From an uncultured Nitrospirota bacterium (GTDB lineage: Bacteria > Nitrospirota > Nitrospiria > SBBL01 > CAZOFZ01), in the NCBI GenBank assembly GCA_964579175.1, contig CAZOFZ010000005.1:1-33604 (forward strand): a stretch of DNA of 33,604 nucleotides, given 5' to 3'. The notes under the pieces are model-generated. The model was given only the letters and a program-made list of their open reading frames with translations. It had not been told where the DNA came from and did no database searches. Of the stretch, positions 1,720 through 33,604 are shown in pieces. Every line of letters starts with the position of its first letter. The first letter of the stretch is position 1. Position numbers and translations under genes: made by a program.

Positions 1720-3006
1720 TTAATCCCGTTTCTTAAGCCAGGGGATGGGATCGAGCGGTTTCCCTTGATGTCGAATCTCAAAGTAAAGCCGGTCATCGGG
1801 TCTTTCGTTCCCCATCTCTCCAATCGGACGTTTCGCCTGCACACGATCGCCCACGGCCACCCATAGCTTTGAAAGGTGGCCATAGACGGAATAATAGTTT
1901 TCGCCGTGATCGACAATGACGACCCTGTCGTAGCCGCGAAATCCGTCGGCATAGATTACCACGCCGTCCGAAACGGCCCGGACCTCCCCACCCGCCATCT
2001 TCTTTTCGGACGGGTCAATCTCGATTCCCTTGCGATCTACATAGGCCTCGAACCGGGGGTGTTTTTGGCGCCCGAACAGGGCGACGACCCGTCCGTCATT
2101 CGGCCATCCCAGGCGTCCCTTGTTCCTGGAAAATTGGCCCGAGACATTTTTCTGATCGGGAACCTCCTTCTGAACCGCATTCTTCTTTTCCTCCAGACCC
2201 CGGATCAGTGCTTGAAGCTGCGTGGCCGATTCGTCCAGTTGAATCATTGCCTTCGCATAGAAGGCTTTTTCGTCTTCGATGTGCGCCAGAAGTTGGTCCT
2301 TTTTTGCCTTCTCCTCACGCATCTGGGCCATGGCTTGATCCAAGAACACCCGTTCCTGTCGCAAGGCGAGCGACATATCCTCCAGACGAGATGCCTGCTC
2401 TCGCAATTGTAATCTCTGCCGATTCAACCGTGCGAGTAGACCTTCCTCTTTTTCGGCAACACGACGTAAGTAGTAAAGCCGCCGATCAATTTGAGGGGCC
2501 TGCGTCGCCCCTCGCAGGGGTCGCACCCCCTCCACGGGCAAAGCCCGTGGAGCCTTCCCCTCAAGCTGCTTGATGAGTTGATTACCTCGAAACAGGGATA
2601 CAATGCCGAGGAGACCCTGAACCTTCTCCTTATAAAGCCTGCGCAGACGCATCGCAATCGTATTGTGCGATTTTCGAATATTTTGATTCAGACTCCGAAT
2701 GGTCTCGGAGAGTGCGATCCGGTCGGCGTCTTTTTTCCGGATGGCCCGTTCGATCTGCTCCACTTCTTTCTTGCGGAGTCGCAGACGGCGCTCCGTTTCC
2801 AAGAGGGAGGAGCGCGTCGAGGCCTCCTTTTTCAAAACGGCGCGCTTCCCCTTCCGTTTTTCCTCCAGGTCCTGCCTGACCTGCTCCAGGGCCTTCTTCT
2901 CTTTTTGAATCTGCTGTTGAATGTCCGGCCCCTTCGACCAGCCCGTCTCGCCCCACAGCAAAATCAGCAGGAGGCAGAACGCGCGACATGCCATTCCAGC
3001 CTGCAT
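1720..3006 (-). CDS. envC: Murein hydrolase activator EnvC (coiled coil plus degenerate M23/LytM domain)
   Basis: Signal peptide, long coiled coil, C-terminal WPNDG/YGHLS/LYFEIR M23 domain lacking most Zn ligands. Follows ftsEX; ATG at 3006 overlaps the ftsX stop. Confidence 0.9.
   Translation of the reverse strand: MQAGMACRAFCLLLILLWGETGWSKGPDIQQQIQKEKKALEQVRQDLEEKRKGKRAVLKKEASTRSSLLETERRLRLRKKEVEQIERAIRKKDADRIALSETIRSLNQNIRKSHNTIAMRLRRLYKEKVQGLLGIVSLFRGNQLIKQLEGKAPRALPVEGVRPLRGATQAPQIDRRLYYLRRVAEKEEGLLARLNRQRLQLREQASRLEDMSLALRQERVFLDQAMAQMREEKAKKDQLLAHIEDEKAFYAKAMIQLDESATQLQALIRGLEEKKNAVQKEVPDQKNVSGQFSRNKGRLGWPNDGRVVALFGRQKHPRFEAYVDRKGIEIDPSEKKMAGGEVRAVSDGVVIYADGFRGYDRVVIVDHGENYYSVYGHLSKLWVAVGDRVQAKRPIGEMGNERPDDRLYFEIRHQGKPLDPIPWLKKRD
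2485..2574. repeat. Multi-hairpin palindromic element (family B) inserted in frame in envC
   Basis: Outer stem TTGAGGGG/CCCCTCAA; inner hairpins CCTGCG/CGCAGG and CTCCACGGGC-AAA-GCCCGTGGAG. Clearly similar to intergenic copies at 21253-21422. Confidence 0.85.
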
Positions 3007-3902
3007 CAGGACCGCCTGATCGAAACGAAACTGCCCAAGCCCCCCAACCCGGCCCCTGCAATGGCGAAACCCGGAAGGAATGGGAGGGGAAAAAAATGGA
3101 GCGTGATCGGCATGACGCCCAGCGGAATGCCGGCCAACGCCACGTTGGCAATCTGGACGACGAGAAAAAGTAGAAGGAGGGAGAGCCATCCCCCCAGGAA
3201 ACCGGCCAGCGATCCTTCCAGCAGGAATGGAACAATAATGAACGAGCGCGTGGCCCCCATCAGACGCATCACCGCCACCTCTTCCGCGCGGCTGTGGAGG
3301 TGAAGTCGAATCGCATTGGCCACGATCGTGATTACCGCAACGGCCAGCAGACATCCGATTCCTCCCCCGATACGTCCCAAAAGTCTCAGGAAGCCATCCA
3401 GCTCTTGCAGCCACTCTGCGGTGTAACGGACCTCTTCGACACCGGACATCTTTTTGTAGCGATCCACGATCCGCTTGAATGGGGCGGGTGCCTGGTCGGA
3501 CGCTTTGACCTGCACCTCGAACGAGGCGGGGAACGGATTTTCCCCCAGGCCGGTTAACAACGCATCATCGCGATAGGTGTCCTTGAACCACTGCAGGGCC
3601 TCCTGCTTGGAAATATAGGAAAAAGAGGCAATGCGCGCATCCGAAGCCAGGGCCGCTTCGATCCGACGCGCCGCATCTCCTCCCTCTTTTTCCCCAGAAT
3701 CTCCAGAATCTCGTAGATAGACACTGAAATGGACCTCCCTCCGCAACGCATGTAGGAGATAGTCAATATTATAGTAGAACAGTAAAAAAAGGCCAAACAG
3801 GATCAAGGGACAACTGAGAGAAAGGAGCAGAAAGGATGCCTTCCAGCGATCGCTCCAAATGTTGTCCGCCGTCTTTTTAAGAAAATAGGACAGGTGTTTC
3901 AT
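3006..3902 (-). CDS. ftsX: Cell division ABC permease FtsX
   Basis: 4-TM layout, ENPFPASFEV loop, NAIRL...EVAVMRLMGAT...PFLLEG motif; follows ftsE. Confidence 0.93.
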   Translation of the reverse strand: MKHLSYFLKKTADNIWSDRWKASFLLLSLSCPLILFGLFLLFYYNIDYLLHALRREVHFSVYLRDSGDSGEKEGGDAARRIEAALASDARIASFSYISKQEALQWFKDTYRDDALLTGLGENPFPASFEVQVKASDQAPAPFKRIVDRYKKMSGVEEVRYTAEWLQELDGFLRLLGRIGGGIGCLLAVAVITIVANAIRLHLHSRAEEVAVMRLMGATRSFIIVPFLLEGSLAGFLGGWLSLLLLFLVVQIANVALAGIPLGVMPITLHFFPLPFLPGFAIAGAGLGGLGSFVSIRRS

Positions 3903-4575
3903 CGTTCTCGACGATCTCTCCCCGCCGCAGCATCAGTGTTCTGGGGCCGGGGATGGACTGGGAGGCCATTTTGGGGATCCGTGCACGCTGGTGCGTGGCC
4001 ACGATCAGGGTGGTTCCCATCGCATGGATATCTTTAAACAACGTCATTATCTCGTCCGCCAGGGTGTCATCCAGGCTGCCGGTCGGTTCATCCGCCAACA
4101 CCAGGGCGGGACGATGGACGAGGGCGCGGGCAATGGCAACGCGCTGCCGCTCTCCCCCCGACAGGGCAGGTGGCCGCTGTTTGTACTGGCGTTCCAGATG
4201 GACCAGACTTAACACGTCCAGAACGCGCTTGCGAATCTCGCGCGCCGGGACCCCCGCGATCCGCATCGGTAACCCGACGTTTTCGTAAACGGTCTGACGC
4301 GCGATCAGTCTGAAATCCTGGAAGATAAACCCGATCTTTCGGCGCAGCGCGGGGAGGTCGCCCTCTTTGAGGCGGGAGATGTTTCGTCCGTCGAACAGAA
4401 TCTGTCCGCGGTCGGCCTGTTCTTCGCACAAGATCAGTTTCAGCAGCGTTGACTTTCCCGCCCCGCTTTCTCCGACCAGAAAAACGAACTCCCCTTTTTC
4501 GATCTTCAGACTGGCGTCCGAAAGCACCGGCGGGCCGACCCCATATCGCTTATGAATATGGAAGAGTTGGATCAT
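3877..4575 (-). CDS. ftsE: Cell division ATP-binding protein FtsE
   Basis: Walker A GESGAGKST, FQDFRLI, LSGGERQRVAIARA, ADEPTG, ATH. Confidence 0.95.
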   Translation of the reverse strand: MIQLFHIHKRYGVGPPVLSDASLKIEKGEFVFLVGESGAGKSTLLKLILCEEQADRGQILFDGRNISRLKEGDLPALRRKIGFIFQDFRLIARQTVYENVGLPMRIAGVPAREIRKRVLDVLSLVHLERQYKQRPPALSGGERQRVAIARALVHRPALVLADEPTGSLDDTLADEIMTLFKDIHAMGTTLIVATHQRARIPKMASQSIPGPRTLMLRRGEIVENDETPVLFS

Positions 4576-4580
4576 GCCAC

Positions 4581-4722
4581 GGGCACCTCTAAAAACCTAC
4601 TGTGCGGCCAAACTGCTGCGTTGCGCGGTGCTCGGAATCCTCATGTACACAGCGTACATTCCGGTTCCTGTGCTCCGTGCGCCTTGCATTTTGGCCGCTC
4701 GTGACGGTTTTTAGAGGCGCCC
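4581..4722. mobile_element. MITE family A, full-length copy (142 bp, 17-bp terminal inverted repeats, ERIC-like core)
   Basis: GGGCACCTCTAAAAACC ... GGTTTTTAGAGGCGCCC with one mismatch; internal palindrome centred on TGTAC-N-GTACA. Closely similar copy at 33404-33557. Confidence 0.85.
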
Positions 4723-4728
4723 CACATG

Positions 4729-5088
4729 CTAGCGCAGACGGTCCGACAACTCAAACGCATTCTGAAAGAGGGTAACTTGGGCCCCCTCCGCCCCCTGCTG
4801 CACGGCCACCACGTCGAAGCGACAGGGGCATCCATCCGGGTACTTCCGGCTCAGATAAAGCAAGGCACTGCGGGAGAGTTTTTCCTGCTTGCGCAAATCC
4901 ACGGCCAGTTCGGGCGTGCCGAACTGCCCCCCCGACCGCGCCTTGACCTCAACAAAAACGACGGTCGCTCCCTCTTTTGCGACGATGTCAATTTCACCCT
5001 GATCCGTCCTGAAATTGCGTGTCAGGATGACATAACCCCGTTTTTGAAGGAAGCGGGCCGCGATCTCTTCCCCCTCCGCACCGGTCAT
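4729..5088 (-). CDS. yraN: YraN / UPF0102 family nuclease-like protein
   Basis: GAEGE...RNFR...GEIDIVA...VFVEVKAR...CRFDVVA; typical position after rnhB. Confidence 0.93.
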   Translation of the reverse strand: MTGAEGEEIAARFLQKRGYVILTRNFRTDQGEIDIVAKEGATVVFVEVKARSGGQFGTPELAVDLRKQEKLSRSALLYLSRKYPDGCPCRFDVVAVQQGAEGAQVTLFQNAFELSDRLR

Positions 5089-5732
5089 TTTACGCCACGG
5101 AATGTTTTGCGATGCAACCGGCAGGGGCCATACTTTTGGATGTTACTCAGATGCTCCGCCGTCGGATATCCCTTGTGCTTCTTAAAATTGTACTGCGGAA
5201 ATTCGTCGTGGTAGGCACACATCAGGCGATCCCGTGTGACCTTCGCCAGAATGGAAGCGGCGGCGATGCTGACGGAACGTTGATCCCCTCGAATGATACC
5301 CCGCTGCGGGGTGGAGACCTTCGGGAGCGTGAGCGCATCAATCAGGAGATAATCGGGCAGCAGGTAATCGGGCGGGGCGGGGAGTTGGTGCAGCGCCTCC
5401 TGCATGGCCTGATAGGTGGCCTGCAGGATGTTGATTCTGTCAATGACATCCGACGTCACGATGCCGACGCCAAAACTCAAGGCACCCTGTGTAATCTGAT
5501 GAAAGAGTTCCTCGCGTTGACGCGCGGAGAGCTGCTTGGAGTCGCGTATTCCGGGAAGGGTCGTATAGGGAGCGGGCAGGATGACGGCCGCAGCCACCAC
5601 GGGGCCCGCAAGGGGGCCACGACCTGCCTCATCCAGTCCGCAGATGGACGAATAACCGGAGCTGTGCAGCGCCCGTTCTTCCGAAGACATTTCAAACAGG
5701 CGCTGCGCCTCAGCTAGATGCGGCGGATCCAT
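5085..5732 (-). CDS. rnhB: Ribonuclease HII
   Basis: GLDEAGRGPLAGPVVAAAV, DSKQLS, SIAAASILAKVTRD, HKGYPT, HRKTF. Start codon approximate. Confidence 0.95.
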   Translation of the reverse strand: MDPPHLAEAQRLFEMSSEERALHSSGYSSICGLDEAGRGPLAGPVVAAAVILPAPYTTLPGIRDSKQLSARQREELFHQITQGALSFGVGIVTSDVIDRINILQATYQAMQEALHQLPAPPDYLLPDYLLIDALTLPKVSTPQRGIIRGDQRSVSIAAASILAKVTRDRLMCAYHDEFPQYNFKKHKGYPTAEHLSNIQKYGPCRLHRKTFRGVK

Positions 5733-21173: not shown

Positions 21174-21246
21174 TGGGCCCACCAGGATTCGAACCTGGGA
21201 CCAACCGGTTATGAGCCGGCGGCTCTAACCGCTGAGCTATGGGCCC
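21174..21246 (-). tRNA. tRNA with CAT anticodon, most likely tRNA-Ile2 (lysidine)
   Basis: GGGCCCATAGCTCAGCGGTTAGAGC...CT-CAT-AA...GGTTCGAATCC...TGGGCCCA. G1-C72 pair argues against initiator; position after rpoD matches E. coli ileX; CCA not encoded. Confidence 0.9.
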
Positions 21247-21252
21247 ATATTA

Positions 21253-21422
21253 AGGGGGGCTCACGTCGCCCCCTCCACCGGCAGAGCCGGATGGAGCCTC
21301 CCCCTCAAACTGCAAAAACACCGTCCAATCAGGGGACTCGCGTCGCCCCTCGCAGGGCATGATGCCCCCGCAGGGCACGTTGCCCTCCACCGGCAGGGCC
21401 GGATGGGGCCTCCCCAAACCGC
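21253..21422. repeat. Two tandem copies of palindromic family B
   Basis: 21253-21313 and 21331-21422 share GGGGnCTCnCGTCGCCCCT...CCTCCACCGGCAGnGCCGGATGGnGCCTCCCC..AAACnGC with each other and closely resemble the envC insert. Confidence 0.85.
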
Positions 21423-21464
21423 ACAAAACCATGTCCCGCTACATTCAAAAGGGGCTCGCGGCTG

Positions 21465-25431: not shown

Positions 25432-26625
25432 TTATCGGACTGACGCCGACGAAGGGAAGTGCGACACGGACTCCCTTGGGCGAATGACGCCAGACAGATC
25501 GGTCTGCCTGAAATCGGCGCCGGTGATGTTCGCCTGTGTCAGGTTGGCCCCATCCAGAATCGCTCCCATGAGATTTGCCCCACTGAGGTTTGCCCCGTTG
25601 AGATGGGCCTTGTCCATTTGAGCGCCCTTCAAGTTGGCCCCGGAGAGATCGGCCCCGGAAAGATCGGCTTCCGTGAGGATCGTGCCGCTTAAGATGGCGC
25701 CTCCCAGACCGGCCTTACTCAAGTTGGATTTCGTCAGATCGGCGCGCGTCATGTTTGCGCCTCGCAGATCGACGCCGTTGATGTCAACAAATGCCATATC
25801 GGCCTCGATCAGGCTGGCCCCCCGCATATCCGCCCCCGTCAGCGTTGTGACCGTGACGGTATCGCTGCTGATGTCCGCGCCGCTTAAATTGACCCGGACC
25901 AGGTTGGTCCCGAACAGGTTGGCCCCTCGCAGATCGGCCTCCACGAGGAGCGCGCCACTTAAATTGGCCTCGAACAGGTTGGCGCCCCGCAGATCGGCTT
26001 CCACGAGACGTGCGCCACTCAAGTTTGCGCCTCCGAGGTCGGCCTTGTTGAGACTGGCCGCCGTCAGATTGGCGACACCCAGATCGGCACCGCCCAAACT
26101 GGCCTGATTGAGACTGACGCGGTTCAAATCGGCACCACTCAAATTGGCCCCCCGTAAATCGGCGCGCACCATGGCCGCACCACTCAAGTTGGCCCCCCGC
26201 AGATCGGCCCCTTCCATCGTGGAGGCACCCAGATTGGCCCCGCTTAAATCCGCACCCACCATCTGCGTTTTGACGATCCGGGCCCCACTGATGGAGGCGT
26301 TGTGTAACACCGCGCGATTCAACGTGGCATCATTCAGATTCGCGCCAGTCAAGGTTGAATTACTCAAGTTTGCGCCGTTTAGATTCGCATAGCTGAAATT
26401 GACACCACTTAAGTCCAGGTTGGAGAGGTCCAGCTTGGTCAGATTCTGTCGCGTGAAATCGCGCGCGCTTCTCAGCACCACATCCACCTGCTCACGGTCC
26501 AGCACAGGCATGCCTTCCATCGCCCAAACTCCCGTGGGCAGCAGGGCCAACACGCCGATCCATGCGTAGAGACATTCTCCAAACAACCGACGGACCCAGC
26601 CTGACGCACGCAATCCATATGACAT
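25432..26625 (-). CDS. Exported pentapeptide-repeat protein
   Basis: About 330 residues of A(D/N)LxG repeats after a signal-peptide-like N-terminus ending VWA; GAGGAGG before ATG 26625. Confidence 0.92.
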   Translation of the reverse strand: MSYGLRASGWVRRLFGECLYAWIGVLALLPTGVWAMEGMPVLDREQVDVVLRSARDFTRQNLTKLDLSNLDLSGVNFSYANLNGANLSNSTLTGANLNDATLNRAVLHNASISGARIVKTQMVGADLSGANLGASTMEGADLRGANLSGAAMVRADLRGANLSGADLNRVSLNQASLGGADLGVANLTAASLNKADLGGANLSGARLVEADLRGANLFEANLSGALLVEADLRGANLFGTNLVRVNLSGADISSDTVTVTTLTGADMRGASLIEADMAFVDINGVDLRGANMTRADLTKSNLSKAGLGGAILSGTILTEADLSGADLSGANLKGAQMDKAHLNGANLSGANLMGAILDGANLTQANITGADFRQTDLSGVIRPRESVSHFPSSASVR

Positions 26626-26669
26626 GGCACATCCTCCTCTCGTCACAATTTCCGATGCTATGGCTATAT

Positions 26670-26700
26670 GGGCACGTCTTGACGGTTTTTAGAGGTGCCC
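26670..26700. mobile_element. MITE family A, internally collapsed 31-bp copy
   Basis: GGGCACGTCT-TGACGGTTTTTAGAGGTGCCC: partial left end joined to the right 21 bp of the element, flanked by TATAT/ATATA. Confidence 0.75.
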
Positions 26701-33340: not shown

Positions 33341-33403
33341 CGCAACCTCACCGGTTCGATCGGACAGCGGGGCTTACGTCGCGCCCCCCTTGCGGGCAAT
33401 CAA

Positions 33404-33557
33404 GGGCACATCTAAAAACCTACTACGCGGCCCAATTGCTGCGTTGCGCGGTGCTCGGAATCCTCATGTACATTGTGTACATTGTGGTTCCTGTGCGCAG
33501 TAGCGCCTTGCACTTGGGCCGCAGTCGGCGCCCGACCGCTCGTGACGGTTTTTAGAG
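33404..33557. mobile_element. MITE family A, near full-length copy with truncated right end
   Basis: Aligns over its length with 4581-4722; carries an extra GTCGG/CCGAC mini-hairpin near the right end and lacks the terminal GTGCCC. Confidence 0.85.
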
Positions 33558-33604
33558 CAACTGTCTTGTCAAATCCCTGTGAAAGGGAGTTTCTGCCGCG
33601 CGGT

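Follow-up and report, generated by a model that had tools for sequence, protein, structure and literature searches.

In-frame insertion of a dispersed palindromic repeat in the coiled-coil linker of EnvC in an uncultured Nitrospirota bacterium

Within the envC gene of an uncultured Nitrospirota bacterium lies a copy of a dispersed, GC-rich palindromic repeat that leaves the reading frame of its host unbroken. The gene was found near the start of a stretch of 33,604 nucleotides (nt), here called the window (contig CAZOFZ010000005.1 of assembly GCA_964579175.1, positions 1 to 33,604 of the forward strand), in which two intergenic copies of the same repeat are also present. An earlier reading, made from the sequence alone, had proposed that the copy in envC is a coding insertion of the kind known as Rickettsia palindromic elements (RPEs), that it is placed at the turn of the EnvC coiled coil, where FtsX binds, and that the repeat family, possibly undescribed, colonises proteins in this lineage. 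The features on which the argument rests are as follows, with positions numbered from the first letter of the window.

1720-3006, minus strand: envC, an open reading frame (ORF) of 428 residues with a signal-like N-terminus, a long antiparallel coiled coil and an M23/LytM domain, of the murein hydrolase activator type
Core 2491-2571, plus strand: long-form copy of the palindromic repeat within envC, recognized by a covariance model match, by nhmmer and by a 75-nt gap in an orthologue; its minus-strand reading is approximately QLEGKAPRALPVEGVRPLRGATQAPQ
2530-2552, plus strand: main hairpin of the envC copy, with a 10-bp stem (CTCCACGGGC/GCCCGTGGAG) and the loop AAA; the inner positions co-vary among copies
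About 2516-2530, plus strand: extra small hairpin module (GGGGT..ACCCC), which defines the long form and encodes VRPLRG
3006-3902, minus strand: ftsX, an ORF of 298 residues; the ftsX genes of relatives, adjoining envC, were matched by tblastn
3877-4575, minus strand: ftsE, an ABC ATPase of 232 residues with Walker motifs in its translation, named by reading and not by a family-library scan
21249-21323, plus strand: intergenic short-form copy (88 bits with the covariance model), adjoining a tRNA gene at 21174-21246 (minus strand)
21333-21426, plus strand: intergenic long-form copy with two extra hairpin modules (nhmmer E 9e-5)

The three genes form an operon-like row on the minus strand, in the order ftsE, ftsX and envC, and the ATG of envC overlaps the stop codon of ftsX by one base. 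The product of 1720-3006 is EnvC, because it carries a Peptidase_M23 domain (PF01551, residues 338-420), because its closest solved chains are the EnvC proteins of P. aeruginosa, E. coli and V. cholerae, and because an AlphaFold2 model (mean predicted local distance difference test score, pLDDT, 79.8; alignment of 79 rows) matches the chains 8tzl_E and 6tpi_A over its full length. The features of the class are present, including antiparallel coiled-coil helices (residues 29-140 and 170-281), a beta domain, PF01551, and ftsX and ftsE upstream. The architecture and the gene neighbourhood are those of the EnvC proteins solved from E. coli, P. aeruginosa and V. cholerae (6TPI, 8HD0, 8I6O, 8TZK/8TZL), but the tip linker of these proteins is short, whereas that of the protein described here is longer by 28 residues.

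The insertion of a dispersed palindromic repeat into this gene is confirmed by comparisons within the genome and with orthologues. Repeat finding grouped positions 2528-2560 with 21271-21303 and 21383-21415, a covariance model built from 22 copies matched 2488-2579 with 74.1 bits (E 5.5e-23), and nhmmer matched 2493-2571 with an E-value of 2e-12. On the minus strand, the segment 2470-2590 folds as RNA with z = -2.79. Both the claim that envC holds, without a broken frame, a repeat matching the intergenic copies at about 21253-21422 and the Pro/Gly/Arg-rich peptide quoted with it hold true, since the matches agree, the ORF is open and the EnvC translation contains ...LIKQLEGKAPRALPVEGVRPLRGATQAPQI... 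as written. When envC is aligned as DNA with its orthologue in G001, a genome of the same genus, one gap of 75 nt (25 codons) appears, and both flanks align. The insert is absent from 27 of 27 other orthologues aligned, for which 30 loci were taken from relatives and 2 partial ones left out. These gaps are of the kind that the sequence-only reading expected among close relatives, and they bear out a coding insertion comparable with RPEs. Among 79 EnvC homologues, the linker segment that holds the insert measures 15 residues in 76 and 18 residues in one, while lengths of 43 and 45 residues are reached only in P0001 (the EnvC studied here) and P0002 (a relative 86% identical to it), which are also the only carriers of the insert in this set. 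An assembly artefact was considered and rejected, since both junctions are covered by contigs from four DNA runs, made on three samples of a single study (one sample being possibly the source), through 2200-2530, 2526-2900 and bridging pieces at 2502/2506-2555, with a depth like that of the flanks, and no joint that skips the element was found among the contigs of these runs. No RNA run was among those listed for 2200-2900, a negative that does not bear on whether the gene is expressed.

The element occurs in forms of different length, about 65 nt in the short form and about 80 nt in envC, where the extra hairpin module is included. The short form reads (T)TTAGAGGGGCT.GCGTCGCCCCCTC, followed by the hairpin, by GAGCCTCCCCCTCA and by a lineage-specific tail. 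In long forms, the stretch from the first arm to the main stem holds one or two additional small hairpins; the extra module of the envC copy is also present in copies on contigs C37 and C71, and a copy on C84 has a different one. Some copies, for example the one in pepN described below, have a further small hairpin after the second arm. The ends of the element are imperfectly inverted (AGAGGGGC ... GCCTCCCCCTCA). The predicted helices are a 4-bp GGGG/CCCC helix and the 10-bp hairpin, and compensatory changes were found in 4 of 14 pairs among the 22 copies of the model. In 118 distinct copies from other genomes, 96.8% of the cells pair, and both sides have changed in 106 cells, compared with 16.1 +/- 3.2 after shuffling (0 of 500 shuffles as high; slid controls at most 17), although these counts come from an alignment that was fitted to the model. 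The hairpin itself is highly diverse: 81 different sequences are present among 133 exact-core copies, such that near-invariant arms enclose a hypervariable stem. With Rfam, no family was found at gathering scores in the window, the intergenic copies had only chance-level matches (E 1.9-6.2), and no ribozyme or intron family matched the element.

The insert has been kept in at least two, and probably three, related lineages. P0002, which comes from a different contig set, harbours the same long-form insert at the same place and in frame, with five substitutions. Two of these (P to R and V to D) hit codons that form both arms of the main stem and, as judged from the protein, would fit a paired change of two inner stem positions. 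In a second strain (runs X3 and X4), which covers 2544-2743, there are 19 differences, all of them outside the part that belongs to the element.

The position of the insert in EnvC can be mapped on the E. coli protein, for which the available part of Cook et al. 2020 (PMC7668044) describes a helix I at residues 40-123, a short linker with a six-residue helix, and a helix II at 152-214, with FtsX sites at 114-128 and 141-160. Residues 130-137 of P0001 were aligned by HMMER with chain positions 100-108 of 6tpi_A, and these would be about residues 134-142 if the chain starts at 35 like the construct of PMC7668044, with an uncertainty of 1-2 residues in the offset. The insert would then follow immediately on the linker helix, close to where the second FtsX site starts, within the linker that joins helix I to helix II, a placement supported by this alignment. 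In the AlphaFold2 model, a helix at 29-140 and another at 170-281 adjoin a region at 132-168 with pLDDT below 50, so that the insert is modelled as a low-confidence loop and predicted to be disordered. According to the part available of a cryo-EM description (PMC11491553), the coiled-coil hairpin of EnvC is inserted between, and clamped by, two FtsX periplasmic domains. The earlier placement of the insertion at the turn of the coiled coil is thus supported, because the E. coli mapping and the cryo-EM description, as far as these sources go, agree, and the modelled helices and the 6tpi_A alignment lead to the same site. The contact has weak support from a predicted complex of EnvC 85-225 with two copies of the FtsX periplasmic domain (residues 48-172), which scored 0.49, the best of 3 controls reaching 0.14. 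The mark applied to such predictions is passed by 116 of 157 solved complexes and by 2 of 215 mismatched pairs; at scores of 0.60 or less, it is passed by only 18 of the 157 solved complexes and by both of the passing mismatches. Contacts agreed between the runs by at least 49% and the partner pLDDT was at least 57, but similar FtsX-EnvC complexes are already solved, so that the pass may reflect this likeness.

Genes in which the two partners are joined are present among relatives. In G004, G006, G011, G015, G018, G021 and G035, ftsX and envC form a single open frame of about 700-750 codons, and other database proteins of that size (P0037, P0038, P0041 and others) carry FtsX and M23 domains together. 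By their sequences, these single frames are natural FtsX-EnvC fusions.

The envC copy is not the only one that lies inside a gene. In the frame used in envC, here called the EGEA frame, the element reads EGEA..ALP.EGAT.AP, and the same frame is used in other hosts. The clearest parallel is the gene of an M1 aminopeptidase N (pepN, contig C67), in which a precise insertion of 69 nt lies between the Peptidase_M1 and ERAP1_C domains and is absent in 5 of 5 relatives. A further copy is found inside the nuclease region of an AddA-like UvrD/PD-(D/E)XK helicase-nuclease (C108), and G003 is without the stretch, while a Ycf48/BNR-like ORF (C19) reads through a copy in another frame. In G001, a long-form copy is placed in the anticodon-binding region of the isoleucyl-tRNA synthetase (IleRS), and an aminotransferase ORF is extended at its tail by two copies. 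In two complete genomes of genus g5, two copies form the end of a DabB-like gene, and one more lies in DabA. The preference for one frame was assessed in 120 cross-phylum copies flanked by 150 nt or more at either end. In 10 of them, the EGEA frame stays open over at least 90 residues to both sides, a length that the other five frames together reach in 4; with a threshold of at least 50 residues, the numbers are 12 and 19, respectively. Of the 12 fragments in which the EGEA frame has 50 or more open residues on both sides, Pfam identified the host for 9. The Pfam-named hosts elsewhere are DabA, MoaC + MoCF_biosynth, a Clp-type AAA lid, DnaJ, Lhr, SCP2, TSCPD, acyl-CoA dehydrogenase and a protein kinase. 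The covariance-model search that had been suggested as a check returned 45 matches in the genome, and in-frame copies were found in other genes.

An ORF of at least 100 residues begins no more than 25 nt downstream, in the same sense, in 9 of 25 genome copies, compared with 1 of 21 at the other end. As 3 of these 9 copies (those of pepN, of the Ycf48/BNR-like ORF and one before moaC) lie within a coding frame or at its end, the truly intergenic copies placed upstream of ORFs are 6 of 9. Several copies (C73 at 8083, C91 at 6435, C29 at 4936 and others) end in ...CCCCTCTAAAATG, the ATG of which opens a long downstream ORF, and the element may therefore abut or supply gene start regions; the long frames on C91 and C29, being either antisense or unsupported, were not taken to be genes. 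Two further candidates were too weak to be counted as copies, a KsgA-like case on C84 (5170-5227, E 0.0095) and a fragment at a murE/murF junction on C111 (E 0.007). On the latter contig, at 3320-5704 (locus L250), a single uninterrupted frame of 795 codons spans murE and murF, with SAQFEGEAQAP at their junction, for which a gene fusion mediated by the element, or a loss of the murE stop, is possible.

The family is abundant in the genome studied (G000; 1.84 Mb in 206 contigs), where 49 copies were found by iterated nhmmer (E at most 0.01) and 45 by the covariance model, many of them at contig ends. With the same model, the element was found in 28 of 41 related genomes, with 45 copies in G000, 28 in G001, 71 each in G010 and G037, and 98 in G040; of the 15 family f4 genomes, 12 gave no match. 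An exact-core pattern, with one genome per species, gave at least 123 loci. The record titles among the matches listed name Nitrospirota, Nitrospira, Candidatus Manganitrophaceae, Troglogloeales, Deltaproteobacteria, Syntrophobacterales, Syntrophorhabdales, Myxococcota, Bdellovibrionales, Ignavibacteriales and Pseudomonadota, all metagenome-assembled genomes (MAGs), and these phylum labels are titles of MAG records, in which both labels and binning can be wrong. Phages are not evident carriers, since in a viral contig collection the exact core pattern occurred in one contig only. The suggestion of a family that colonises proteins in this lineage is thus upheld as to the proteins (pepN, the AddA-like gene, IleRS) and has to be widened as to the lineage, to which the element is not confined (28 of 41 genomes, and MAGs labelled as several phyla). 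The family may be undescribed, as had been supposed: no description was found in the literature searched, which included the core motif strings and did not extend to subscription journals.

A link to a RAYT (REP-associated tyrosine transposase), the partner of certain REPs (repetitive extragenic palindromes), was considered and rejected. In 13 loci around Y1_Tnp genes of relatives (38,876 bases), the covariance model found 0 elements, and the presence of Y1_Tnp showed no correlation with that of the element across the 41 genomes. GTAG REPs and the REPIN-RAYT system were rejected as a class, since there is no GTAG in the consensus and the single Y1_Tnp match of the genome (C40) is flanked by, and belongs to, a different, GTAG-tagged repeat. 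That other repeat (unit GTAGAAGCGGCGTCCCCGCCGCTT, often in inverted pairs) lies in frame at least 8 times within one very long ORF at about 800-5800 of C40 (locus L031); the ORF resembles an N6-adenine methylase/restriction-modification protein, and a whole RAYT-like Y1 domain (PF01797) stands between two GTAG repeats in the same frame. No target duplication was found at the clean empty/filled site of pepN (the empty site being that of G001), nor within 80 nt of the 24 genome copies that have flanks of at least 80 nt. Among 124 copies elsewhere, 21, of which some are tandem arrays, lie between direct repeats of at least 10 bp (up to 55 bp); in shuffled pairs, the proportion is 3 of 365. Long direct repeats of 11-55 bp were seen at L092, L104, L115, L129 and other loci; one of them doubles the 3' end of a tRNA gene, and another doubles 15 codons inside a Clp-like gene.

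Palindromic repeats that lie in frame within genes are known from Rickettsia (RPE) and from some REPs, as described in the available parts of PMC10969869 and PMC3733652. The present element shares with the RPEs, as far as these sources describe them, a dispersed palindromic nature and an in-frame location in many unrelated conserved genes, with a fixed frame and a presumed tolerance in surface loops. The features of an RPE-like class seen here are a dispersed, multi-copy palindrome, an in-frame insertion absent from orthologues, and one preferred frame with a conserved peptide. In the description by Di Nocera et al. 2013 (PMC3733652), CGTC stands at the end of the RPE units, and an invariant CGTC is also found here. 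On the other hand, the element has a length of about 65-80 nt, compared with about 150 bp for the first-reported RPEs (PMC10969869, likewise in part), and its hosts are free-living and belong to several phyla, whereas those of RPEs belong to one intracellular genus, a comparison made by description only. By the descriptions of RPEs, the near-invariant arms around a hypervariable stem also set the element apart. GTAG and CGTC REPs, for their part, occur in genes of several species, often those of repair helicases and tRNA synthetases (PMC3733652, in part). These REPs and the present element are short palindromes that add 20-30 residues within genes, and the hosts found here likewise include an AddA/UvrD-like helicase and an IleRS. 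In the same source, as far as available, CGTC REPs have no dedicated transposase nearby, and 0 of 13 Y1 loci carry the element here. Their structure is described there as a stem of 8-9 bp that starts with A/T pairs right after the tag, a loop of 4-5 nt and a CCA tail; unlike them, the present element has GCCCC(C) between CGTC and a 10-bp stem starting CTC, the loop is AAA, and the arm GAGCCTCCCCCTCA replaces the CCA tail. Nitrospirota has 0 occurrences in Di Nocera et al. 2013 (PMC3733652). [quoted passage not shown] In contrast with MITEs, the element is without a short fixed target duplication at the clean site, direct repeats that are long and variable accompany a minority of the copies elsewhere, and no parent insertion sequence is known for it. 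By analogy, the element seems to behave like RPEs and intragenic REPs, that is, as a selfish repeat that would survive in a gene only if an in-frame flexible loop is tolerated there.

In the probable explanation of the locus, a REP/RPE-like repeat inserted into the envC linker, is translated there as a flexible and tolerated loop, and was retained in related lineages. The GC-rich hairpin repeat would have entered envC in an ancestor shared by a few lineages that are closely related, at the linker that closes the coiled-coil hairpin of EnvC. The gene would have stayed open because the net gain is a multiple of three and this frame has no stop. The element is most likely translated into a Pro/Gly/Ala/Arg-rich loop of 25-28 residues, predicted to be disordered, and the copy may persist because the loop would lie at the surface between two FtsX-binding helices, which it does not destroy. 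In general terms, a selfish structured repeat would insert widely, and copies that miss the frame or fall within structured segments of genes that are needed would be lost, which could be why genic copies are nearly always found in one hydrophilic, flexible frame. Some observations weigh against this account. The near-invariant length of the linker (76 of 79) suggests a constrained tip, and an addition of 28 residues may not be neutral there; the FtsX-EnvC complex prediction, with its score of 0.49, lends weak support; the AddA-like case offers no clean gap, as G001 has an unrelated stretch of similar length at that place; and, when the two strains are compared, the 28 nt that belong to the element have 0 differences and the following 172 nt have 19. 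This identity, along with the substitutions in P0002 that would fit a paired stem change, gives a hint that nucleic-acid structure is kept inside the gene.

It might accordingly be asked whether the element is kept in envC mainly as nucleic-acid structure, the peptide being a by-product, either as an mRNA hairpin that would affect the decay, pausing or translation of ftsEX-envC, or as DNA that would maintain itself by correction within the palindrome or by conversion from other copies. The stem positions that co-vary across copies, the P0002 substitutions and the identical element part of the two strains fit this possibility, and ORF starts close downstream in 9 of 25 copies versus 1 of 21 are expected of a transcribed element. 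It is nevertheless quite improbable, since two counts of wobble-type mismatches disagree on how strong the strand asymmetry is (30 vs 8 and 23 vs 13) and covariation could also stem from a recognition requirement at transposition. A co-option of the loop, which would alter the FtsX clamp or the twist of the coiled coil, or add a contact, and so retune amidase activation, is unlikely as well. Its attraction lies in the site, the mechanically critical tip of the protein (PMC7668044 and PMC11491553, as far as these describe it), where the linker is otherwise fixed at 15 residues in 76 of 79 homologues and the insert was kept in at least two, probably three, related lineages. However, the peptide of the element is also found in many unrelated proteins and in intergenic DNA, and so its sequence was not shaped for EnvC; AlphaFold2 sees no structure in the loop, and only one small clade carries the insert.

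An insertion that disturbs a length-invariant linker could also have disabled envC and turned it into a pseudogene. This is very improbable, given that the frame of 428 codons is intact and start-coupled to ftsX, a point raised by the sequence-only reading and now examined, and that the 86%-identical P0002 has no frame break either. In addition, no second coiled-coil EnvC was found in the genome, which is 96.5% complete, when this EnvC was used as query, the other matches being M23-domain paralogues. Least probable of all is an element that is not translated. The GC-rich palindromic 'byp' inserts of yeast mitochondria are skipped by the ribosome or removed from the transcript, and the stable hairpin inside the coding region of envC would suit such a fate. 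Bypass or excision would leave length and frame free, yet the net gains are 75 and 69 nt, no stop is present in any copy within a long ORF, one frame dominates, and there is no Rfam ribozyme or intron match.

A more far-reaching possibility, quite doubtful when taken as a whole, is that these copies represent an undescribed, cross-phylum class of structured mini-elements, with recognition as a folded single strand, an unusual mobility, a role as donors of loop peptides, and an EnvC loop that takes part in FtsX-EnvC coupling. Recognition of the folded single strand would be suggested by near-invariant arms combined with a freely co-varying stem, and a mobility unlike that of REP/RAYT or MITEs by the target duplications, long and of variable size (11-55 bp), that sometimes flank the insertions; as examples, the element could be copied in by template switching or could pass through an intermediate of RNA or of a single strand. 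Being open in one hydrophilic frame, the element might then serve essential proteins in general as a source of loop peptides.

Under the explanation by insertion and tolerance, the repeat-to-protein process documented in Rickettsia and for some REPs would now be seen in free-living Nitrospirota-like and other environmental bacteria, with one element recurring in essential genes (envC, ileS, clp, dabA/B and others) across MAGs labelled as different phyla. The list of hosts could serve as a natural catalogue of sites at which conserved proteins accept about 23-28 extra residues. The EnvC insert, in particular, would be a natural perturbation with which models of FtsEX-EnvC mechanotransmission might be tested, because the linker is otherwise fixed in length (76 of 79) at the point where FtsX transmits force. 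For genomics, the element breaks short-read assemblies, since many copies are found where contigs end, and both annotation and domain calling can be misled by it.

Other repeats are present in the window. A MITE-like repeat some 150 nt long, whose inverted ends GGGC[A/G]CCTCTAAAAACC measure 17 bp, occurs at 4578-4722, just upstream of ftsE, and at 33401-33563, with a half copy at 26666-26700; its full copies are 87% identical over 101 nt, and no Rfam match was better than E 0.06. The segment 9761-9922 has periodic repeats of 15-30 nt rich in GCC/GGA and is probably a low-complexity stretch coding for Ala/Gly/Ser. At 25529-26401, there are dense 15-nt periodic repeats of two families, as expected of a gene for a pentapeptide-repeat protein.

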